A stretch of 63,639 nucleotides of DNA, counting the filler. It is 6 parts of 6 records of this genome, joined end to end, with 100 filler letters (N's around TTAATTAATTAA, not from the genome) between each part and the next. Parts side by side here need not be neighbours in the genome. Positions count along the whole stretch, not along the records: positions 1 to 9,348 come from SRR31156797_9372; 5 more parts are not named here. One strand, 5' to 3'. Every line of letters begins with the position of its first letter. Positions within the stretch are counted from its first letter, which is position 1. Position numbers and translations under genes: made by a program. Below are positions 1-49,394 of the stretch, one piece after another. The notes beneath the pieces were generated by a model. The model worked only from the letters and a program-made list of their open reading frames with translations, ran no database searches and was not told the origin of the DNA.

Positions 1-75
1 GTCAGAAAAAGATGGTACTGGCAGGACATGGCTGATATAGATTATGTCCTGGACACCCTGGAGGTTGCGGAGTGA
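1..75 (+). CDS. 3' end of probable MotA/TolQ/ExbB proton-channel family protein (5'-truncated)
   Basis: Frame 1 reads VRKRWYWQDMADIDYVLDTLEVAE* (TGA 73-75) and overlaps the GTG of the DUF2149 gene. An RxRWYxxD tail directly upstream of DUF2149 is typical of the ExbB-like partner in cobN/hmu clusters. Confidence 0.55.
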   Translation, partial: VRKRWYWQDMADIDYVLDTLEVAE

Positions 76-437
76 AAAGGAGAAGATTCAGGCGAACAGG
101 ACTCATAAATAATGAGGATGAGCAAAATCCCCTCACAGGGGTTGCTAACCTTTTTGATATTGCCATGGTCTTCTCAGTTGCACTTCTGGTTGCACTTGTT
201 ATGTCATACCAGTTGCCGGAACTACTCAGTCCTACAGAGGACATTGTATTGGTCAAGAATCCGGGTGAGAAGGACATGAAAATTATTATCAAGGAAGAAG
301 GACAGCCAATTGAAGTCCTGAACATGACTGACCAGATTGGTGGTGGACAGGGAGAAGCACTTGGTACAGCCTACAAACTGGCCGACGGAAGAGTTGTTTA
401 TGTACCAGAGGATGAAGGTAACACCACCTCTGGATAA
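72..437 (+). CDS. DUF2149 family membrane protein (HmuV-like, ExbD-like topology)
   Basis: Basic N-terminus, NPLTGVANLFDIAMVFSVALL TM segment, KNPG and GxGxxLGTAYKLADGRVVYVPE motifs; adjacent to a cobN-like gene. Confidence 0.85.
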   Translation: MKRRRFRRTGLINNEDEQNPLTGVANLFDIAMVFSVALLVALVMSYQLPELLSPTEDIVLVKNPGEKDMKIIIKEEGQPIEVLNMTDQIGGGQGEALGTAYKLADGRVVYVPEDEGNTTSG

Positions 438-453
438 TTTTTTTATTTTTATG

Positions 454-475
454 AGCAAGTTATCTTGCTTTAAAT
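454..475 (+). promoter_or_regulatory. Palindrome AGCAAG-TTAT-CTTGCT abutting a TATA-like TTTAAAT
   Basis: Perfect 6-bp inverted repeat at 454-469 followed by TTTAAA(T) at 469-475, downstream of a T-rich tract after the DUF2149 stop. Could be a promoter/operator or part of a terminator. Confidence 0.3.
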
Positions 476-529
476 CAAGTTACATTGAGAGCGTGGTTGG
501 TGAATAGAAACGAAACAAAATGATGTGAA

Positions 530-592
530 GGACATTGCGGTACCGCCTGCAAGCATAGTAACCGGAATGCCCACACGTTATCGGGGGATAAC
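530..592 (+). promoter_or_regulatory. Conserved structured leader, copy 1 (stem-loop with GCCnnCAAGCAT loop plus GTTATC-GGGG-GATAAC hairpin abutting ATG)
   Basis: Stem 530-541/561-572 (10 of 12 pairs), loop motif GCCTGCAAGCAT at 545-556, and palindrome 577-592 directly before ATG 593. The same architecture recurs at 6932-7005. Confidence 0.65.
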
Positions 593-3500
593 ATGCAAAC
601 AAAAAGAGGATTGGCATTATTCATAAGCGTATTGTTGTTACTATCGCTAACAACAGTGGTATCGGCAGACGAAAATAATTACGAGATGGTAGCCAGTACA
701 AGCACCGGAACAGATGGCCTGTATGTTTTTGAAGACCTTCCTGATGGTGATTACAGCATTGTAGCTGTGAACTGGTCTGACAAAAAAATGTTATGGTACA
801 CAGGAATAAAGGACGTAACATTACGTGGCACAGATCTTGTGGACCAGAATGTAAAGGTGAACAGCACCACTGGCATTGCCGTCGATTTTATAAATGGATT
901 ATTTAATAGTTCATCCATTACAGGTATGACCTACATCATGAAAACAGACTACCCGAGAGAAAGTTCCATTGTATTGCTGGACCAGAAGACAAAGAAACTG
1001 ATCGCAAATACAAGCTCTGATGAAAATGGATTATACACTTTTGCTGACATTCCCGATGGAGACTACAGTATAGTAGCTTTGAACTATTCAACTGCAAAAG
1101 AAACATGGTACAAGGGAATTATCAATGTAACACTCACAGGCGCTGACATCGCTGACCAGAATATAAAGGTTAGTAGTTCCACAGACCTTGATGAGAATTA
1201 CATACTTGGACTGCTTAGCAGGTCATCAATAACAGGCATGACCTATGTAATGAAAACAGATTACCCAAGAGCAAGTACCGTAGTCCTTCAGGATCTGCAT
1301 ACAAAAGAACTGATCGCAAATACAAGCTCGGATGCCACAGGAATATACACATTTACTGATATTCCCGGTGGAGACTACAGTGTAGTTGCAGTGAACTATT
1401 CCACTGCAAAAGAAACATGGTACAAGGGTATTGTTAACGTAACACTTAATGGCACTGACCTTACGGATCAGAATATTAAGGTTAGCAGTTCCACGGATAT
1501 TGATGAAAATTACATACTGGGTCTGCTCAATAGTTCATCTATCTCAGGTATGACTTACGTGATGAAAACAGATTACCCCAGACAAAGTCTTGTTGTTTTG
1601 CTTCAGACATTGGGTGATGAGGGACACGTGGACCTGCCTTCCGATGAAGAAGATGATACCAGCACTGACGAACCAGCAGATGATACCGACGATTCCTCCG
1701 GGAATACAACAGATGACACTTCGTCAAGCACAGGTTCAGCTTATGAGTATTTCCTAAGCCTGACAACCGACGAGCTGGGTGAGTTTGTACTTGAAAATAT
1801 ACCCAGTGGTGAATACCAGATATCAGCTTTGAACTGGACTTCATCCATGGGCGGAATGTGGCTCACCAATGTAACAGAAGTCACAGTAGGGGGCGACATG
1901 TCCATAGATGTCGGCAATCTTACAGTGAGAAAAAACAGTGACGTAGATCATGAGGCAATCCTCTCAACAATGAATGAAACCTACATCTCAGGAAAGACCA
2001 TTGGTAAAAGAGGTGACAACAAGATTTCAGACCTTGTACTCACAAACCAGTTTGGGGAGTACGTTGCTGATACTACCTGTGACGGTGAAGGAGAATTCAT
2101 ATTTGATGGAATCAGGAATGGAGAGTACACCGTATCTGCTGTTAACTGGAGTTCATCCATGGGTGGAATGTGGCTTATCAATGTAACAGAAGTCACAGTG
2201 GAAAACGGCCTGCCAGTGGAAATTGGCAACCTTTCAGTGAGAAGTAATGATGACATTGACTCTGAGGCAATTCTCTCAATGATAAATGAGACTTACATTG
2301 CTGGCAAAACAATTGGAAAGAGAGGTGACAGCAAGATTTCTGATGTTGCTCTCACAAATCAGTTCGGAGAATACATTGCCAGCACCACAGTAAACATTGA
2401 CGGGGAATTCTTGTTTGAGGGAATAAGGAATGGTGAATACACAGTGTCTGCTGTTAACTGGAGTTCATCAATGGGGGGAATGTGGCTTACCAATGTAACA
2501 AAAGTCACAGTGGACAACGGGTTGCCCACAGAAATTGGCAACATGTCAATGAGAAGCAATAGTGACATCGATCAGGATGCAATCCTGTCAATGATGGATG
2601 TAACTTCCATTTCAGGAAAAACAATTGGAAAAAGGGGTGATAACAAAATCAGTGAGATAGTACTGATGAAAAAGCGTTCTGTTGCCACTTCAAATGAGCC
2701 TCACCTTAACGTTGCCTTTGTGACAGGTTATTCATCATACGAAAATGATTTTATAGCTCTTGAAGAGAGGATCGATAACAACAGTGCATTGAATATCGAC
2801 TTCAGTTACTATGTCACAACAAGTCTTCCTGATGATATCGACCTGAGCAATGAGGATATCATTTACGTTGTCATGGTCACCCAGAGTGCGGATATCCTTG
2901 AGGATGCAGTTCAGGAAGCCATTGATAATGGTGCCGTGGTAATAGGTTCCAACACCTATCTCCCGGAAAGTGATTACACAATTCCTGATGAGTTTGAAGA
3001 TCAGAGTGAATTCAAGACCTATCTTGCAAAATACTGGTCTGGAGGTTCTTCAGATGAATCGAATTTTGACAATCTGATATTCTACCTTGCGCAGGAATAC
3101 TACGGACGTAATGACCTCACAGTGGAGCAGCCAACAGGTCTTGAAAGTGCTATTTACCATCCTGCAATGACAACAATGCCTACGGAATACTTCACCGGCG
3201 ATGCTCATGAGTATTTCAGTTGGTATGCAAACAGGACAGACGGGTATGCATTTGATGCGGATGCCCCAACGGTTGGTATCACATATTATAAGTCCTACTA
3301 CCCTGACGATATGGACCCCATAGACAAGCTCATTGAAGGTTTTGAGGACAATGGAGTCAATGTTGTCACATGTTACGGAAATGCCAACAACTATCTTGAA
3401 GGCTACCTGAATCACAGTAGTGATACAAAGGTTGATGTTGTCGTTTCATTCCACTACCGTGGCAATTACTTCGATCTGGAGGAACTTGATGTTCCAGTGA

Positions 3501-6500
3501 TGAACGCTGTACTTAACGGTTACATGAACACAAGCGAATGGATCGAAACCACAACTCCTCTTCCAGTGACAAACATGCTCAGGATCTACGGTCCTGAAAC
3601 TGAAGGACTCATCGATCCGATTATGATCGGTGCAAAGGAGACAATCACTATTGACAACACCAGTGTGGAGAAATACATTGGTCACGATGAGCAAATTGAT
3701 TGGCTCGTTGAACGTGCTATTGCACAGGCAGAACTTGGAACAAATGAAGAAGTTGACAAGAAAGTTGCAATTATCTACTACAACCACGGTGGCGGTAAGG
3801 ACAATATCGGTGCATCATACCTTGAGGTTACACCAAGTATCGTTAACCTGCTTGAGGGAATGGCAGATGACGGATACGATGTTGACAGCAGCCTCTTACC
3901 CAACAAGACAGAACTTGTGGATCTCATGGTCTACCAGGGAAGGAATGTTGGTACTTGGGCACCGGGAGAACTCGAAGCTCTTGTTGAAACAGGTGAAGTG
4001 AAGCTGATCCCTGAAGTCACATACCTCTCATGGTTTAACGAACTTCCTGAAGAGAGAAGGGAAGAAGTAATCGGAACATGGGGAGAGGCTCCCGGTGAGA
4101 TCATGGTCCACACCGATACCAGTGGAGACAAGTTCATTGTCATACCTACAATCAGTGTCAGTGACAACGTGATACTTGCACCACAGCCCACAAGGGGATG
4201 GCTGCAGGATAGTGAAGTACTCTATCATGACACAGACCTGGCCCCACATCACCAGTACATCGCGTTCTATCTGTGGATGCAACACGAGTTTGATGCTGAT
4301 GTAATGGTGAATATGGGAAGGCACGGAACAGTTGAGTGGCTTCCAGGAAAGGACTTCGGTCTGCTCAGTGATGAATGGCCAGCCATTATGGTTGGTGACA
4401 TACCTGTTGTCTATCCGTATGTAATGGACGGAATGGGCGAAGGTATGCAGGCAAAACGCAGAGGTAACGCCATCATTATTGACCACCTGATACCACCTGT
4501 GGTTTCTGCCGGTCTTTATGGAAACTATAGTCTGCTTAGCAGCGAGATTACCTCCTACCAGACATCAGTTACTGAAGACCAATCCCTGAAAGAAGCACAT
4601 CTGCAGGAAATCGTTAATCTGACACTTGATCTTAACCTGGATGAACAGGTAAATGTAAGTCTGGCACAGGACAATGAGACTGTGGAAGAGTTCCTCGATG
4701 AACTTACAGATGTACTTGAGGATCTCAAGAGCCAGTCCATGCCTTACGGATTGCATATACTTGGAGAAGCACCACAAGGCGACTCTCTTGTCGGAATGGT
4801 AAACTCCATGCTTGGGGATGAGTTCTCAGAGCATGTGGAAACATACAATACCACAGACTCCGCAGCTACCGACCTGCTATCACTTGTGATACTGGACAAC
4901 GTGTCATCGTCCGAAGCACAGATGCAGGTACTTGGAACAAATGACACTGTCATAGATGCAGAACTCAGTACTGCCATCAATTATGCAGAATTACTTGGTG
5001 AAGCTGACAATGAGATAGAGCAGGTACTGGCAGCCATGAATGGTGAATTTATCAGTCCAAAGCTTGGTGGTGACCCGGTACTTAAGAGCGAAACACTTCC
5101 ATCAGGTTCTAATTTCTATGCATTCGATGAGCAGCTCATTCCTACAGAAGAAGCATGGGAACAAGGCAAAGCCCTTGTGGATGAATGGCTTTCTTCCTAC
5201 TACGAAGAGAACGGAGAATACCCAACAAAGGTAGGATATATTCTCTGGGCAGGAGAATCCACACGTCATGAGGGAGTAATGGAAGCACAGGTTCTCTATC
5301 TTATGGGAATTGAACCTGTGTGGAACAAGGACAACAATGAGGTTGAGGACGTACAGATCATAAATTCCAGTGAACTTGGAAGGCCTCGCATTGATGTAAT
5401 TGTCCAGATATCCGGATTGTACAGGGACACCTTCCCAATGAAGGTTGAGCTGATTGACAAAGCTGTAAGGCTTGCATATGCAGAAGGTGACACGGATGAA
5501 TATGAAAACTACGTGACACTGAACACCGATGCATTGCAGGCTACACTTAGTGAAACAATACAGGATGAGAACCTGTCACTTGACATTGCACAGTTCAGGA
5601 TATTCGGTCCGGCTGACGGAGCATATGGCACAGGCATGGCAAATGCTGTCAGTGCCAGTGAGACATGGGAGAATAATACTGAGCTGGCTGAACTCTATAT
5701 TGACAAGATGAGCTATGTTTACGGACAGAACATCTGGGGACAAAGCATAAGCGAATATATTGAACTTCAGACAAGTCAGGCTATTGACATTGACAGCACA
5801 GTTGTCTTTGAAAGTAATCTCAATGAAACACAGGCAATATTCCACAGCAGGAGCTCCAGTACATACGGTTCCCTTGATACTGATGATTTCTATCAGTATA
5901 TGGGAGGACTGTATAATGCTGTCACTTATGTTTCAGGAGAAACACCTGAAGCATATGTAGTGAACCTGCAGGATCTTAGTGACCTGGAAATACAGACGCT
6001 TTCAACTTTCATATCCAATGAGCTTTATGCAAGATATTTCAATCCATCCTGGATAAGTGGAATGCAGCTCCATGGTTACGAGGGTGCCAGGGAAATGGAA
6101 GGTTTCCTTGAGAATCTTTGGGGATGGGAATCGCTTAACCATGATCTTGTCAGTGATGATGTCTGGAACAGTGTCTATGACACCTATTTTGCAGACGCAG
6201 AACTTAGTGACTGGATGAAGGAGACTAATCCATATGCCTATCAGGCAATGGTTTCCAGAATGACAGAAACTGTCAGGAAAGGTAGCTGGGATGCTTCGGA
6301 TGAGGCACTCCAGACCCTTGTTGAAGAACAGATCAAATCTGTAAACGAGAACGGTGCTACCTGTTGTCACCACACATGTGGTAATTTCCTGAATCAGGCA
6401 TTTGTGGATGGAATTGCACAGGCACTGGTTGAAGCCGGTGAGATCAGCCAGTATGAGCTGGACTCATACAGGGAGATTATGGAAGAAGTCACAACTGCTA

Positions 6501-6838
6501 CGGAAATCCCTGCAACAACATCCACTAAATCCAGTTCATCTTCAAGTTCCAGCTCCAGCAACAGTGGGTCAGAGCTTAAGGTAGTTGACAAATCAGGCTC
6601 CGGGAACCAGACCACTGTAAGTGATGCTGGTGCCGGAGAAGATCTTGATACTGAAGCTTCACTGAAATCTCCTTCTGAGGATAGCTATGTGGAAGGTTAT
6701 GAAATGACAAAGGAGAATACAGAACAGAATGCAACAAGCGCAGGACCCTCAATTTCAGGGTCAGATATCCTTGCCTCGATTCTGGTACTTGCCGGAGTTG
6801 GAGTAATGTATCTTGGGTTTATGAGGAGGAAAAAATGA
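593..6838 (+). CDS. cobN: Secreted, C-terminally anchored CobN/HmuS-like chelatase with N-terminal beta-sandwich repeats (2081 aa)
   Basis: Signal peptide; KKVAIIYYNH, NIGASYL, PHHQYIAFYLW, GRHGTVEWLPGK, LGRPRIDV, SGLYRD, ARYFNPSWI-GM-HGYEGA and CCHHTC motifs; Ser/Thr linker, then TM helix and RRKK tail. Confidence 0.9.
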   Translation: MQTKRGLALFISVLLLLSLTTVVSADENNYEMVASTSTGTDGLYVFEDLPDGDYSIVAVNWSDKKMLWYTGIKDVTLRGTDLVDQNVKVNSTTGIAVDFINGLFNSSSITGMTYIMKTDYPRESSIVLLDQKTKKLIANTSSDENGLYTFADIPDGDYSIVALNYSTAKETWYKGIINVTLTGADIADQNIKVSSSTDLDENYILGLLSRSSITGMTYVMKTDYPRASTVVLQDLHTKELIANTSSDATGIYTFTDIPGGDYSVVAVNYSTAKETWYKGIVNVTLNGTDLTDQNIKVSSSTDIDENYILGLLNSSSISGMTYVMKTDYPRQSLVVLLQTLGDEGHVDLPSDEEDDTSTDEPADDTDDSSGNTTDDTSSSTGSAYEYFLSLTTDELGEFVLENIPSGEYQISALNWTSSMGGMWLTNVTEVTVGGDMSIDVGNLTVRKNSDVDHEAILSTMNETYISGKTIGKRGDNKISDLVLTNQFGEYVADTTCDGEGEFIFDGIRNGEYTVSAVNWSSSMGGMWLINVTEVTVENGLPVEIGNLSVRSNDDIDSEAILSMINETYIAGKTIGKRGDSKISDVALTNQFGEYIASTTVNIDGEFLFEGIRNGEYTVSAVNWSSSMGGMWLTNVTKVTVDNGLPTEIGNMSMRSNSDIDQDAILSMMDVTSISGKTIGKRGDNKISEIVLMKKRSVATSNEPHLNVAFVTGYSSYENDFIALEERIDNNSALNIDFSYYVTTSLPDDIDLSNEDIIYVVMVTQSADILEDAVQEAIDNGAVVIGSNTYLPESDYTIPDEFEDQSEFKTYLAKYWSGGSSDESNFDNLIFYLAQEYYGRNDLTVEQPTGLESAIYHPAMTTMPTEYFTGDAHEYFSWYANRTDGYAFDADAPTVGITYYKSYYPDDMDPIDKLIEGFEDNGVNVVTCYGNANNYLEGYLNHSSDTKVDVVVSFHYRGNYFDLEELDVPVMNAVLNGYMNTSEWIETTTPLPVTNMLRIYGPETEGLIDPIMIGAKETITIDNTSVEKYIGHDEQIDWLVERAIAQAELGTNEEVDKKVAIIYYNHGGGKDNIGASYLEVTPSIVNLLEGMADDGYDVDSSLLPNKTELVDLMVYQGRNVGTWAPGELEALVETGEVKLIPEVTYLSWFNELPEERREEVIGTWGEAPGEIMVHTDTSGDKFIVIPTISVSDNVILAPQPTRGWLQDSEVLYHDTDLAPHHQYIAFYLWMQHEFDADVMVNMGRHGTVEWLPGKDFGLLSDEWPAIMVGDIPVVYPYVMDGMGEGMQAKRRGNAIIIDHLIPPVVSAGLYGNYSLLSSEITSYQTSVTEDQSLKEAHLQEIVNLTLDLNLDEQVNVSLAQDNETVEEFLDELTDVLEDLKSQSMPYGLHILGEAPQGDSLVGMVNSMLGDEFSEHVETYNTTDSAATDLLSLVILDNVSSSEAQMQVLGTNDTVIDAELSTAINYAELLGEADNEIEQVLAAMNGEFISPKLGGDPVLKSETLPSGSNFYAFDEQLIPTEEAWEQGKALVDEWLSSYYEENGEYPTKVGYILWAGESTRHEGVMEAQVLYLMGIEPVWNKDNNEVEDVQIINSSELGRPRIDVIVQISGLYRDTFPMKVELIDKAVRLAYAEGDTDEYENYVTLNTDALQATLSETIQDENLSLDIAQFRIFGPADGAYGTGMANAVSASETWENNTELAELYIDKMSYVYGQNIWGQSISEYIELQTSQAIDIDSTVVFESNLNETQAIFHSRSSSTYGSLDTDDFYQYMGGLYNAVTYVSGETPEAYVVNLQDLSDLEIQTLSTFISNELYARYFNPSWISGMQLHGYEGAREMEGFLENLWGWESLNHDLVSDDVWNSVYDTYFADAELSDWMKETNPYAYQAMVSRMTETVRKGSWDASDEALQTLVEEQIKSVNENGATCCHHTCGNFLNQAFVDGIAQALVEAGEISQYELDSYREIMEEVTTATEIPATTSTKSSSSSSSSSSNSGSELKVVDKSGSGNQTTVSDAGAGEDLDTEASLKSPSEDSYVEGYEMTKENTEQNATSAGPSISGSDILASILVLAGVGVMYLGFMRRKK
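683..1606 (+). repeat. Intragenic repeat array A: three 312-nt (104-aa) carboxypeptidase-regulatory/Cna-B-like units
   Basis: MKTDYPR codons start at 938, 1250 and 1562 (period 312). Recurrent GLYTFxDIPxGDYSIVAxN and WYKG motifs. Confidence 0.9.
1741..2676 (+). repeat. Intragenic repeat array B: three 312-nt (104-aa) units with NW(S/T)SSMGGMWL motif
   Basis: NWxSSMGGMW codons start at 1832, 2144 and 2456 (period 312). GKTIGKRGD occurs three times. Confidence 0.9.
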
Positions 6839-6874
6839 AGATTCAGACTTAGACTCAGACTTAAACTTAAATTC
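6839..6874 (+). repeat. Degenerate hexamer tandem repeat (ARAYTY)x6
   Basis: AGATTC AGACTT AGACTC AGACTT AAACTT AAATTC immediately after the cobN stop codon. Confidence 0.8.
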
Positions 6875-6900
6875 AGGCACTTTTCTTTTTTTGTGCCTTT
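6875..6900 (+). terminator. Putative terminator: AGGCAC-(T-rich)-GTGCCT
   Basis: 6-bp inverted repeat enclosing TTTTCTTTTTTT downstream of the first cobN. Oligo-T tracts are typical archaeal termination signals. Confidence 0.45.
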
Positions 6901-6931
6901 AAAAAATATTGAATTGAAAAACAGATAAAAG

Positions 6932-7005
6932 TGTAGGTCGGCCACTCCCCAAAAAAGCCGCCAAGCATGAAAGGGGAGTGCCACTACAAGTTATCGGGGG
7001 ATAAC
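6932..7005 (+). promoter_or_regulatory. Conserved structured leader, copy 2
   Basis: Stem CACTCCCC 6943-6950/GGGGAGTG 6973-6980, outer TGTAG/CTACA, loop motif GCCGCCAAGCAT at 6957-6968, and identical GTTATCGGGGGATAAC at 6990-7005 before ATG 7006. Confidence 0.65.
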
Positions 7006-9348
7006 ATGCAAGCAAAAATTAGATCGATATTAGTATTAAGCATATTGTTGGTATCATTAACAAGTATAGCAGCAGCGGATGAAAATAAAGTAAATATAAT
7101 GTATATAGCATGGATGCCTGATCCGTCACTGGAAATGGCAAGCAGGAATGCATCTTTTGCAGAGGACATTAACTACACGTACATACCGTCCTTTAACACA
7201 ACAACATGGGCTGGACCCAGTGATGAACTCATTGAGGCTGCTGAAAATGGTCTGCTGGAAAGGCAAGACGTGATTTTCTGTGACATGCTCTCCGGCGCTG
7301 TTTACGACCCTATCAATGACTCATTTAAAGCCGCACATGACAGTGGAACATCACTTGTTGATATAAATTCCGCTAACACTCCATCCTACTTTGATTACAT
7401 AAGCGATGGAAATGACAATGAAACTATTGGCAACCTGTATGCTAATATGGGTACGGATACAGAAGCCGGCAGGGAAAATGCAGAGGAGCTTTTGAAACAC
7501 CTGTCTGTTGAATATGCTAACAGGGAAGATATCACTGATCTCTGGGTTGGCAAAATCAATATTCTCTACATTGCCTGGACCCCAAGCGAGGCACTGGAAC
7601 TTGCAAGCCAGATGAGTGAACATGCAGAGAATATTAAGTACACGTATCTGCCATCATACAACACAACAACCTGGGCAGGACCAAGTGATGAACTTATAGA
7701 AGCAGCGGAAAGCGGGTTGCTTGACGAACAGGATGTAATTTTCTGTGACATGCTTGCAGGAAGTATCTACGAACCACTTAACGACTCGTTCTATTCTGCA
7801 CATGAAAATGGAGCTTCACTGGTGGACATCCGTTCAGCTGCTACTCCGGAATATTTCGATTACGCATCTAACGGTTCAATAGATGACCCCATCTGCAACT
7901 ACTACAATGGCATGGGTATTGATACCGAAGTAGAAAGGAAGAATGCTGAGAACCTTTTGACATACCTTGCAAAGGAATATAGCAAGCATCCTGAAATTAC
8001 CGATAACTGGCAAACCATAAAGGTACTTTACATTGCATGGACACCAAGTGATGCCCTTGAAATTGCCAGTCAGACTAATTCGTATAGCCAGAATATCGAG
8101 TATACATACCTGCCTTCATACAACACCACGACATGGGCAGGACCAAGTGATGAACTGCTGACAGCTGCAGAAGGCGGGTTACTGGAAGAGCAGGATCTGA
8201 TATTTACTGACATGGTGACCGGCAGTATCTTTGAACCTATAGATCAGTTCTTCAGCAATGCACATGACAATGGCACAGTGCTTGTAGATATACGCTCGAC
8301 AGATACTCCTGAATATTTTGACCAGATCTACAATGGAAGCGAGAACAACACACTCTGCAACTATTATAATAACATGGGAACTGCAACCAGTGCCCAGCTA
8401 CTTAACGCAGAGAACCTTCTGATACACCTTGCAAAAATAGCTGATTCGGAGCTTACTGATGACTGGGAGTACGCTACCCTTGAAGCTCTTCCGCTACCAG
8501 ATGTTGGTCTTTACCACCCGGATTATGAAGGAAAATACTTTGAAAACACAGAAGAATACCTGGCGTGGTACTCCGATGACAGTGGAAACCATCGTGTATA
8601 CGATCCATCAAAACCGACAATAGGAATGTGGATGCATAGATCCGATGTTAAGGAAGGTCGTACTCAGGTCGCAGAAGCAATTCTAAAGGATATTGAATCA
8701 AAGGATTGCAATGTTATTCTGGGCTTTGATACGTTTGATGATATTGTAAAGTACTACTGTGACGAGAATAACCAGTCTCTGGTACAGTGTGTAATCTCAA
8801 TGAAGAGCTTCAGGCTGAACTATTTCGACAACGACAAAGGACTGCGCGAACTTGAAGCACTGGATGTTCCTGTCTTAAGGGGAATCGTGGTTGAAAAAAC
8901 AAACACCTACGACCCGGCTGACGCAAACAGGGGTATACCAAACGGACAGGTAGTACGCAAGACAATTGGTCCAAATGTCGACGGTATTTTTGAGTTTATA
9001 GTAGTAGGAGACAGCGTATATGACTCAGACTCACAAACAAGTGTACAATCAGCAAGAGACCCACAGGTTGACTGGATTGTCAACAGGTCAATAAACTGGG
9101 CTGAACTTAAGCTCAATGAGAACAAGGACAAGAAAGTAGCTGTAATTTACTACAACTATCCTTCAGGAAAGGACAACATCGGTGCAAGCTACCTCGACAC
9201 CATTTCCAGTATGAGGCTGATGCTTGACAAGATGAACGAGAGTGAATTCACAGTAACTGATATTCCTGAGAATAACAGCGTACTTCTTGAGAAACTATGG
9301 GCACAGGGCATCAATGCAGGTTCATGGGCACCTGGTGTTATGTACGAA
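7006..9348 (+). CDS. cobN: Second secreted CobN-like chelatase with triplicated N-terminal domain (3'-truncated at contig end)
   Basis: Start reassigned to ATG 7006 (same leader as 593; signal peptide MQAKIRSILVLSILLVSLTSIAAA). GLYHPD, KKVAVIYYNYP, DNIGASYLD and GINAGSWAPG motifs. Runs into the N spacer. Confidence 0.85.
7087..8466 (+). repeat. Intragenic array of three ~155-aa alpha/beta domains
   Basis: TTTWAGPSDEL codons at 7198, 7663 and 8125 (periods 465 and 462 nt). YIAW and QD(V/L)IF(C/T)DM motifs occur three times. Confidence 0.9.
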
Positions 9349-9448
9349 NNNNNNNNNNNNNNNNNNNNNNNNNNNNNNNNNNNNNNNNNNNNTTAATTAA
9401 TTAANNNNNNNNNNNNNNNNNNNNNNNNNNNNNNNNNNNNNNNNNNNN
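9349..9448. other. Artificial contig spacer
   Basis: N44-TTAATTAATTAA-N44, which gives stops in all six frames. Confidence 0.99.
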
Positions 9449-27288: not shown

Positions 27289-27388
27289 NNNNNNNNNNNN
27301 NNNNNNNNNNNNNNNNNNNNNNNNNNNNNNNNTTAATTAATTAANNNNNNNNNNNNNNNNNNNNNNNNNNNNNNNNNNNNNNNNNNNN
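27289..27388. other. Artificial contig spacer
   Basis: N44-TTAATTAATTAA-N44. Confidence 0.99.
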
Positions 27389-32493: not shown

Positions 32494-32593
32494 NNNNNNN
32501 NNNNNNNNNNNNNNNNNNNNNNNNNNNNNNNNNNNNNTTAATTAATTAANNNNNNNNNNNNNNNNNNNNNNNNNNNNNNNNNNNNNNNNNNNN
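32494..32593. other. Artificial contig spacer
   Basis: N44-TTAATTAATTAA-N44. Confidence 0.99.
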
Positions 32594-38218: not shown

Positions 38219-38318
38219 NNNNNNNNNNNNNNNNNNNNNNNNNNNNNNNNNNNNNNNNNNNNTTAATTAATTAANNNNNNNNNNNNNNNNNNNNNNNNNN
38301 NNNNNNNNNNNNNNNNNN
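38219..38318. other. Artificial contig spacer
   Basis: N44-TTAATTAATTAA-N44. Confidence 0.99.
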
Positions 38319-40792: not shown

Positions 40793-42085
40793 TTATTCTG
40801 CAAGCAGAAGCCCTCTATCTACTAACCCCCATAACAACCAGAAATAACTACCTACGACAAAATACGTAAAGCGATCGCCAAACATATTAGTTGCCATACA
40901 GGCTAATACCGTACCCATGAAGCAAAAGCCTAATCCTTTTTGAAATTGGCTGTTGCCGATTCTGTATAATTTCAAGCCGCTGAAAAAAGCCTTAAAAAAT
41001 ATTATACCCAATAATAATAAACCAATTATCCCCCGATCACATAGGACTTTAATATAGTAATTATGAGTATCATGTAAACCGTGAATTCTATCTTCAGGTG
41101 GGACACTAAGGCCAAAACTTTCCCATCCGGACCCGAACAGCGGACTTTTGGATATAATATTACCAGCTTGGTCCCAAATTAGAAATCTTTGACCTGCAGA
41201 ACCTTCAAGTTCACCACTTTCTGTTTTGGTACCGCTAATTCGATCGACAACAGATTCAGGCAATAGAACTTTCCAACCGATTATGATTACAAAAAGTCCG
41301 ATCAATAATATTGGTTTTTTAATTAGACCATAGAATACAAGGACTAACGCAATCGCTAAATAGGCTCCCCTTGAATAGGAAAAAAAGAGCGGATGTAAAC
41401 ATATACAAAATGTTGCTATGTATAATGCATATTTTTTTTTGTCCTGCTCAAAAAACGACATTCCTAAAAACGCAGCTTGCAAATGCGCTATAAAAGCACC
41501 GTAATGCGTTGCCCCAAGACCAACAAATTCGAAGGGGCCGCCCACTCTTTTTTCATAAGTGAAAGAGCTCCCACCTGAAAAATTCCTGTAATTTCTTAAC
41601 GCAATAAAGAATAGGATTGAAGACATGATAATAAAAACTTGTTTTTGTTGATCCTCATCAGTGACAATAGCTATTGTAAGAAAATAAATAATTATCATTT
41701 GAGCATAATTTTTCCATTCCATTAATTGCCAACTACTTGTTGTTGCAGGCATCGGCAAATGAAAGAACAGGCTGCTTACCCATAACGAAAAGTAAGAATT
41801 TATGAGAAATATAACAATGATAATCGTGTTTGATGTTTTGGGAATTTTCCGTCTTTGAATAAAGACGCCCAAAAAAACTGAAAAAAAAAGGATATCCATG
41901 AAATCCTTACCCAAGGGCAATTCATGAAACTTATACCATATATTGGGCTGAGGAATTAATGCAATATATATAATAAACCCCCACCATGCATTTTTAAAAA
42001 GAGAATATATTGCAACAACAAAACCACCGAAGTATATGGTCGGGAACAAAATGGCACGAAGCATTTTTTTTATGGCGGTAATCAT
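40793..42085 (-). CDS. O-antigen ligase/Wzy-like polymerase
   Basis: Multi-TM protein with SYSRGAY, SAGQRFLIW, PLFGSG and HNYY. Start uncertain (42103, 42085 or 42064). Confidence 0.85.
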   Translation of the reverse strand: MITAIKKMLRAILFPTIYFGGFVVAIYSLFKNAWWGFIIYIALIPQPNIWYKFHELPLGKDFMDILFFSVFLGVFIQRRKIPKTSNTIIIVIFLINSYFSLWVSSLFFHLPMPATTSSWQLMEWKNYAQMIIIYFLTIAIVTDEDQQKQVFIIMSSILFFIALRNYRNFSGGSSFTYEKRVGGPFEFVGLGATHYGAFIAHLQAAFLGMSFFEQDKKKYALYIATFCICLHPLFFSYSRGAYLAIALVLVFYGLIKKPILLIGLFVIIIGWKVLLPESVVDRISGTKTESGELEGSAGQRFLIWDQAGNIISKSPLFGSGWESFGLSVPPEDRIHGLHDTHNYYIKVLCDRGIIGLLLLGIIFFKAFFSGLKLYRIGNSQFQKGLGFCFMGTVLACMATNMFGDRFTYFVVGSYFWLLWGLVDRGLLLAE

Positions 42086-49294: not shown

Positions 49295-49394
49295 NNNNNN
49301 NNNNNNNNNNNNNNNNNNNNNNNNNNNNNNNNNNNNNNTTAATTAATTAANNNNNNNNNNNNNNNNNNNNNNNNNNNNNNNNNNNNNNNNNNNN
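49295..49394. other. Artificial contig spacer
   Basis: N44-TTAATTAATTAA-N44. Confidence 0.99.

Follow-up and report, generated by a model that had tools for sequence, protein, structure and literature searches.

A conserved two-hairpin leader of archaeal CobN-like genes with strand-symmetric features, a candidate gate on translation

What is the short leader that stands before each of two archaeal CobN-like genes on the first contig of the DNA analysed here (the window, a stretch of 63,639 nucleotides (nt)), and does it work as RNA or as DNA? Judged from its sequence, the leader looks like a structured cis-regulatory element, previously undescribed and with unusual strand-symmetric features, and we give a probability of roughly 0.4 to the reading in which it gates, at the RNA level, the initiation of translation on mRNAs of secreted CobN-like (HmuS/BtuS-like) chelatases. 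Both copies, at 530-592 and 6940-7005, comprise a pairing stem (hairpin P1), the loop motif GCCnnCAAGCAT and the palindrome GTTATC-GGGG-GATAAC (hairpin P2), which ends at the ATG (Table 1). An earlier note on this DNA had described the stems as different in sequence with their pairing kept, the loop motif as common to both leaders, and the 16-nt palindrome as identical, placed 20-21 nt past the motif, holding a G-rich ribosome-binding site in its loop and ending at the ATG. Direct reading bears this out, with 10 of 12 P1 positions paired in copy 1 and 8 of 8 in copy 2, a motif that is exact at both places, and a gap between motif and palindrome of 20 nt and 21 nt, respectively. The exact palindrome occurs at two sites only in the window, both at the leaders; with up to three mismatches allowed, shuffled sequence yields a mean of 0.49 matches, and three matches are reached in 2 of 100 shuffles. 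A near copy, GTGATCGGGGGATAAT at 41025-41040 (-), carries two mismatches, is embedded in coding-like sequence that has neither hairpin nor motif close by and is probably a chance match. The 12-mer loop motif is likewise exact only at the two leaders, and it is not rare once a single mismatch is allowed (7 occurrences in the window versus 4.76 expected). The leaders are identical at 47 of 71 positions, compared with about 50% identity in the upstream DNA and 30% between the CobN domains (over 401 amino acids (aa)), which agrees with the view of the earlier note that a recent duplication is unlikely. Its statement that the encoded N-termini are unrelated past the first codons holds for the N-terminal domains, which differ, and not for the signal peptides of about 25 residues, which are similar; the two coding sequences are 67% identical in nt 1-90 and 53% in nt 91-390.

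The same leader recurs before related genes. A protein-based search returned 16 archaeal loci (Methanolobus, Methanomethylovorans and one Methanosarcinaceae metagenome-assembled genome) and three bacterial loci, and in most of the 16 archaeal loci the leader precedes between one and three CobN-like genes. A covariance model, built from eight gap-free type-1 leaders and followed by re-alignment, found 26 leaders in 15 sources among these first relatives. When the family of Methanolobus sp. WCC5 (Methanosarcinaceae, NCBI taxonomy) was sampled, the leader was present in 72 of 151 genomes, with one to five copies per genome. A broader model applied to 151 genomes drawn at class level matched 42, all of them already drawn in the Methanosarcinaceae sample, and none of the newly drawn genomes among those searched gave a match. 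The collection comprises 120 leaders, 114 of them distinct. Downstream open reading frames (ORFs) of at least 30 aa follow these leaders in 115 cases, and 108 match gene 1 or gene 2 of the window, 77 of these within the CobN domain. Fifteen cases with short downstream ORFs or contig-end cuts were re-checked: CobN-like sequence lies further downstream in eight, and the remaining loci are contig ends or decayed copies, for example with the ATG directly followed by TAA. The usual context is DUF2162 / MotA-ExbB / DUF2149 / leader / CobN-like gene, and the leader is not on every CobN-like gene, the later genes of some clusters being without it. To our knowledge, few cis-regulatory RNA or leader elements have been characterised in archaea. 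The open-access literature searched gave no account of this leader, and the available text of Weinberg 2010 (PMC2864571) mentions neither Methanosarcina nor a chelatase by term look-up.

P1 and P2 are a conserved structured element tied to cobN-like genes, and their pairing is kept by compensatory changes. Alignment A5 holds 105 matches with 96 distinct sequences and leaves out the fetched loci L080, L107, L112, L116, L121, L124, L126, L128, L129 and L131-L140, as well as L034, a duplicate of L023. In this alignment 90.2% of cells pair. Shuffles give 76.8%, with 0 of 500 as high as the alignment itself, and slid partners give 31-48%; covariance-model alignments, it should be noted, are biased towards the model's own structure. 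Changes on both sides are seen in 12 of 12 P1 pairs and 3 of 6 P2 pairs; the first alignment set gave 11 of 12 and 1 of 6. An ungapped, strand-neutral stem finder and single-sequence folds return the same hairpins as the covariance model, and P1 is predicted in essentially all leaders by the single-sequence folds. The earlier note had staked its proposal on covariation and loop conservation among homologous leaders, and both are present in the 96 distinct sequences. An alignment of 27 leaders with MAFFT and RNAalifold gave only three pairs, because the arms were misaligned, and was replaced by the covariance model. The P1 loop is 18-22 nt long across leaders and its core is in the forward orientation in 94 of the 114 distinct leaders, inverted in 7 and lacking within two substitutions in 13. 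Extra P1 pairing of an upstream GTG with the CAC linker is seen in many leaders, not in all. In each of the 114 distinct leaders P2 has a Shine-Dalgarno-like loop (GGGG, GGAG, GGGT, GAGG and similar) and runs up to the start codon. Its six pairs are all Watson-Crick in 57 leaders, five are in 51 and four in 6, and 110 of 114 have CA plus one further nucleotide (CAN) directly before it. An in-frame upstream ATG at 6967, inside the copy 2 loop motif, was considered and rejected as a start, as it is not conserved and most leaders have AAGCAA there.

The P1 arms differ among copies within one genome and yet stay complementary, a property that only base pairing can bring under selection and that rules out a simple protein operator for P1. 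This is the observation that the DNA operator proposed by the earlier note as one alternative leaves unexplained. A DNA-level element, which we consider distinctly improbable, would either have a DNA-binding regulator recognise the core GCCGCCAAGC or have P1 and P2 act as extruded DNA hairpins; lying in the early transcribed region, it would let a bound factor block RNA polymerase, and template-switch repair would keep the palindromes perfect and also yield loop inversions. Such an element would suit a core that is conserved in either orientation, as expected of double-stranded recognition, and the lack of any G-U preference. It would also suit P2 itself, a palindrome of 16-22 base pairs (bp), a size typical of dimeric regulators, with conserved half-sites whose inner positions ATC...GAT are the most conserved. 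Likewise, some stem positions are conserved in sequence (a C-G pair in 82, an A-U pair in 89 and a C-G pair in 90 of the 96 sequences) and the distance from motif to ATG is narrow, 47-51 nt in 88 of 94 leaders. A protein that reads sequence, however, does not explain P1 arms that differ within one genome, and the same half-site at all sites of one genome, looked for as the mark of a dimeric-regulator operator, was not found for P1. P2 shows symmetric double changes (ATTACC/GGTAAT, ATTGTC/GACAAT, ATTATC/GATAAT), and for an operator it would be pure chance that the palindrome has its centre exactly at the Shine-Dalgarno sequence. The cluster of locus L004 has no regulator gene adjoining it. When five genomes were searched for a regulon by means of the 11-mer core, no sites at other promoters came up: 4 of 12 sites are at a leader, and the other 8 comprise 7 inside long ORFs and 1 intergenic. 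Finally, a cruciform with a 19-nt loop is unfavourable to extrude.

The placement of the element on the Shine-Dalgarno sequence and the AUG points to translation. In the gate that we favour, the mRNA would start some 10-35 nt upstream of P1, so that P1 would be transcribed, and the leader would fold into the two hairpins P1 and P2. The loop of P2 would hold the Shine-Dalgarno sequence and its 3' arm would make up the whole spacer to the AUG; thus access of the ribosome would depend on the opening of P2. P1, a stem of 10-13 bp with the loop core GCCGCCAAGC, would serve as a docking hairpin for a trans-acting partner, and this partner would set the level of CobN-like translation or the lifetime of the mRNA. 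As candidate partner an RNA from the opposite strand of the same locus, kissing the P1 loop, may be ranked before an RNA-binding protein, and the latter before a small ligand. The signal would most likely be metal or tetrapyrrole status because of the genes controlled.

A small ligand bound directly by the leader would make it a riboswitch, the idea that the earlier note had listed first, in which the P1 loop together with P2 would bind a metal ion, a corrinoid or another tetrapyrrole and thereby switch access to the Shine-Dalgarno sequence. The position on the ribosome-binding site of chelatase-like genes, the layout of two hairpins and a conserved loop core of 10-12 nt would suit this. With Rfam 15 (4227 models) no match was obtained at gathering thresholds in the whole window, and at E values up to 10 over 400-7100 five weak matches all lie within gene 1 (1610-5171), none at the leaders. 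No Rfam family matches the leaders, as the earlier note had supposed when it recognised no riboswitch class, and a riboswitch here would therefore be a new class. Cobalamin riboswitches are multi-helix aptamers of roughly 200 nt with a B12 box; this leader, with no Rfam match to them, is an element of only about 75 nt with two simple hairpins, and the models of NiCo and other metal riboswitches have no match at the leaders either. Cores that are inverted and yet conserved in 7 leaders, the many loop variants with 13 of 114 leaders lacking the core within two substitutions, and a deficit of G-U pairs are all difficult to reconcile with a ligand pocket. Similarly, no alternative pairing or pseudoknot is conserved across leader types, the loop and the Shine-Dalgarno sequence having been compared by eye only. 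Of the translational switch or operator foreseen by the earlier note, a conserved structured element linked to cobN stands; direct ligand sensing, with inverted cores and no G-U excess, is very unlikely.

The strand on which the element would act is less easily settled, and several results weigh against a plain sense-strand RNA and thus against the gate as set out above. The core is inverted (GCTTGGCGGC) in 7 of the 114 distinct leaders, which come from 7 genomes and stand before at least three paralogue types. In these leaders the stem is kept, the inverted core is conserved and the flanks are different; a sense-strand loop read by a protein or a ligand should not survive such an inversion. 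A metagenome scan for further inverted-loop leaders was too loose, giving at least 119 stretches, and among the 80 loci listed 2 are real by the model (L202 and L211). Interior mismatches of P1 are 25 A-C versus 10 G-T by the strand-neutral stem finder, and those of P2 with its CAN/ATG extension are 73 A-C versus 0 G-T. At the outermost pair of P2, 39 leaders have G-C, 15 have A-T, 23 have A-C and none has G-T; the change from G-C to A-T thus goes by way of A-C and never by way of G-T. The reverse strand is the more stable in 90 of 114 leaders for P1 and in 104 of 114 for P2, counts that overstate independence because the leaders are related. In the window the fold z-scores are -1.95 on the + strand and -3.36 on the - strand for copy 1, and -3.84 and -3.41 for copy 2. 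Over the leaders, neither of the marks expected of a structured RNA in general was found, namely G-U in excess over A-C on the transcribed strand and a sense fold at least as good as the reverse fold. P2 is also weak, its left arm varying uncompensated in 57 of 114 leaders. Finally, constraint extends into the gene: over 113 sequences the third codon positions +33 (A, 0.96) and +42 (G, 0.96), in codons 11 and 14, are near-invariant, position +4 is C in 0.97, and no indels occur between the ATG and the in-gene motif. No pairing partner of this motif was found in the sense RNA, the top partner probability being at most 0.08 over the 113 sequences.

These strand anomalies would be accommodated best by transcription and folding of the opposite strand as well, which would make a cis-antisense partner. 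It may even be that the antisense RNA is itself the functional structured RNA, an explanation that we think unlikely. Such an RNA would start near codon 2 from a promoter in codons 9-14 of the CobN-like gene, run back over the AUG, the Shine-Dalgarno sequence and P1, and end in a U-rich stretch beyond P1. It would pair with the sense leader from a contact between the P1 loops and block translation or trigger decay; the sense hairpins would exist because both strands must fold. The better fold of the reverse strand fits this, and a sense A-C mismatch becomes a G-U pair there, where CAC...ATG reads CAU...GUG and extends P2 to 9 bp. A need to fold on both strands would leave room for Watson-Crick pairs alone, in keeping with how seldom either G-U or A-C is seen, and a loop inversion just swaps the kissing loops and is hence tolerable. 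The constraint within the gene at +4, +33 and +42, without indels, would be one at the nucleotide level: on the reverse strand the in-gene motif becomes the TATA-like CAATA-N-RCTTAA-TAC, some 24 nt ahead of a T|G at +4. The match to an archaeal TATA box is only moderate, however, and constraint on synonymous sites may have another cause. Over the 25 nt that precede P1, A makes up 46% and C 6%, and 81 of 114 leaders have a run of four or more A there; on the reverse strand this stretch would give a hairpin followed by a U-tract, although A-rich 5' leaders are common anyway. Antisense starts as such have precedent, 1110 of them in 908 ORFs being given for Methanolobus psychrophilus in the available text of PMC5378194. 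What an antisense RNA leaves unexplained is the conservation of the core in genomes with a single leader, since cis-antisense loops are complementary whatever their sequence. A more specific form of the gate, in which the sense leader and a conserved antisense RNA kiss through their GCCGCCAAGC and GCTTGGCGGC loops, so that the element, native to methanogens, is read in either orientation and gates translation of a family of secreted CobN-like (de)chelatases linked to the proton motive force upon metal or tetrapyrrole supply, is speculative and to be held with considerable doubt. If true, no conserved cis-antisense or riboregulatory switch common to a whole family would have been described before it for archaeal trace-metal/tetrapyrrole acquisition.

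An RNA gate of the kind we prefer would need P1 to lie within the transcript, and the upstream sequences point that way. In type-1 upstream regions a shared stop codon is followed by a T-run, then by a small inverted repeat and lastly by a TTTTAAAT-like box, and a conserved TATA-like block stands about 55 nt upstream of P1. The spacing from box to start in Methanolobus promoters is 19-22 nt according to the portion of PMC5378194 available, and together with the TATA-like block this would put P1 inside the transcript. The predicted starts are near 495-498 for copy 1, 30-35 nt before P1, and near 6929-6932 for copy 2. In locus L062 the upstream gene ends about 30 nt before P1, which thus lies between two co-oriented genes. 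RNA data were taken from five metatranscriptome runs of two studies, holding 0.05-0.22 of the words, of which four were used, as unstranded contigs of depth about 2-7 in which uncovered stretches carry no information. Contigs from two RNA libraries span the leader of a relative (L063:6460-6610 and 6549-6662) and extend beyond P1 on its upstream side by 57 nt or more, at a depth of about 2, a weak hint of a transcribed P1, as DNA carry-over is possible. A transcribed P1 could also be a non-regulatory 5' feature, a hairpin that protects the mRNA end or a processing site, inherited with the signal-peptide start. The leader is indeed always inherited together with a conserved signal-peptide start, and in Methanolobus both translation and stability are influenced by stem-loops at the 5' terminus and by the processing of leaders, as far as the text of PMC5499594 available goes. 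Mere protection, however, would require no conserved core in the loop and no conserved palindrome over the Shine-Dalgarno sequence, and this origin seems the least credible of all those weighed here.

Several known systems resemble the leader in part. In animals, the iron-responsive element and its iron-regulatory protein combine a conserved-loop hairpin in the 5' leader of metal-related genes with a bound factor that blocks translation initiation. The present leader is similar in having a hairpin with a conserved loop before metal-related genes, but it is archaeal, its binding partner is hypothetical, and it has neither the CAGUGN loop nor the C bulge and also occurs with its core inverted. 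Hairpins that occlude the Shine-Dalgarno sequence, as in the platforms of translational riboswitches and in RNA thermometers, likewise place this sequence and the spacer in a short hairpin; P2, in contrast, holds it in the loop and not in the stem, is of 6 bp only and often contains an A-C mismatch. The guanidine-II (mini-ykkC) riboswitch is also small, with two adjacent hairpins next to the ribosome-binding site, whereas here there is no Rfam match, the two loops are unlike each other and the P1 loop is of 18-22 nt instead of a tetraloop. The cis-antisense kissing loops of the plasmid systems CopA/CopT and hok/sok involve complementary hairpins of two strands over a translation start, and a likeness to them would explain both the strict Watson-Crick pairing and the tolerance of inversion. 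In contrast to these, the leader is chromosomal, archaeal and conserved across a whole family, and its antisense transcript is hypothetical. The hmu operon of Bacteroidota (the HmuS de-chelatase with HmuT/U/V) shares the module of CobN-like, MotA/ExbB-type and DUF2149 genes, and its CobN-like HmuS removes iron from heme; the available text of the same source calls the role of the archaeal homologues unclear and describes no such leader for the bacterial operon (PMC12583661). In Methanosarcina barkeri the abundance of the CobN-like BtuS proteins depends on which iron/sulfur source is supplied (PMC10846266, in the part available), and cobN is cited among the ORFs significantly down at the RNA level under nitrogen limitation in M. 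mazei (PMC11456600, likewise in part). The element is small, easily recognised and strongly covarying, occurs in about half of the sampled genomes of Methanosarcinaceae, a major methanogen family, and is tied to one enigmatic gene family, that of the secreted CobN-like proteins found next to a motor of the ExbB/DUF2149 type. Identifying the signal of the switch would point to the substrate or metal of the CobN-like proteins, be it iron, nickel, cobalt, heme, a corrinoid or F430. The inverted and yet conserved loop, together with strict Watson-Crick pairing, makes the leader a test case for sense RNA versus antisense RNA versus DNA hairpins.

Table 1 Features of the first contig, in coordinates of the window.
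Feature	Coordinates	Strand	Remarks
DUF2149 gene	72..437	+	Pfam PF09919, E 2.2e-34; last of the DUF2162 / MotA-ExbB / DUF2149 module before CobN-like gene 1
T-run after the DUF2149 stop codon, terminator-like	438..450	+	Kept in 19/20 aligned type-1 upstream regions
Promoter-like block	455..476	+	Small inverted repeat GCAAGTTATCTTGC, then TATA-like TTTAAATC; alignment of 20 upstream regions
Hairpin P1, copy 1	530..572	+	5' arm GGACATTGCGGT (530-541) with ACCGGAATGCCC (561-572), exceptions to pairing A-C and G-G; loop 542-560
Loop motif, copy 1	545..556	+	GCCTGCAAGCAT; direct reading
Linker ACAC and palindrome P2, copy 1	573..592	+	Palindrome GTTATCGGGGGATAAC at 577-592: GTTATC 577-582, G-rich Shine-Dalgarno loop 583-586, GATAAC 587-592; ATG at 593
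CobN-like gene 1	593..6838	+	2081 aa, with a signal peptide, repeats of CarboxypepD_reg type, a CobN/Mg-chelatase domain and a membrane anchor at the C-terminus
Codons 11-14 of gene 1	623..634	+	Place at which the whole family shares the nucleotide motif TTAAGYNTATTG; gene 1 has ATAAGCGTATTG
GGCAC / T-rich / GTGCC hairpin after gene 1, terminator-like	6876..6897	+	Also upstream of other type-2 leaders
TATA-like sequence	6898..6910	+	TTTAAAAAATATT; direct reading
Hairpin P1, copy 2	6940..6982	+	Core arms CACTCCCC (6943-6950) and GGGGAGTG (6973-6980); RNAfold extends the stem to 6940-6982
Loop motif, copy 2	6957..6968	+	GCCGCCAAGCAT; direct reading
Linker ACTACAA and palindrome P2, copy 2	6983..7005	+	Palindrome 6990-7005; ATG at 7006
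CobN-like gene 2	7006..9348	+	781 aa visible, gene cut by the contig end: signal peptide, three repeats of about 150 aa, start of the CobN domain
Codons 11-14 of gene 2	7036..7047	+	Conserved in-gene motif TTAAGCATATTG

The window consists of at least six contigs, merely joined by linkers of the form N44-TTAATTAATTAA-N44 (9349-9448, 27289-27388, 32494-32593, 38219-38318 and 49295-49394), so that no feature is to be read across the joins. The first contig (1-9348) carries, in order, the end of the DUF2149 gene and the CobN-like genes 1 and 2; the same gene order of DUF2162, MotA-ExbB and DUF2149 is found in L004, L062 and L063. Both CobN-like products match Pfam PF02514 (CobN / Mg-chelatase superfamily) above the cut-off, gene 1 with E 0 over residues 813-1905 and gene 2 with E 4.5e-53 over residues 467-774, up to the contig end. 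In gene 1 at least six transthyretin-like repeats (CarboxypepD_reg, SdrD_B, NOMO) precede the CobN domain, and a Ser-rich linker with a membrane anchor at the end gives the product the look of a surface-tethered chelatase-like protein.

Some of the collected loci depart from the usual arrangement. In L074, L075, L076, L080 and L083 a short ORF of 36-121 aa with a signal peptide comes after the leader, and CobN-like sequence begins 0.9-1.2 kb downstream, in a different frame in L075, L076, L080 and L083 and in the same frame in L074; these could be frameshifts, pseudogenes or split genes. Decayed leader copies with TAA right after the ATG stand at L017:18016-18106 and in L126. The 11-mer core also lies in an intergenic GC-rich palindrome, GCCGCCAAGCAAGCTGGCGG, in L148 (G132:C1:1979673-1979683, -), unrelated to any CobN-like gene. 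L063 contains a different palindrome, GGTAAYAATCGTTACC, at L063:4596-4611 and L063:11964-11979. It precedes both the DUF2162 operon and a second CobN-like gene, one that has no leader, and is a candidate operator of a DNA-binding regulator. In the same locus an ArsR-type helix-turn-helix protein with a weak DUF4430 match (L063:3669-4214, -) is encoded divergently from the DUF2162 / MotA / DUF2149 / CobN cluster and is a possible regulator.

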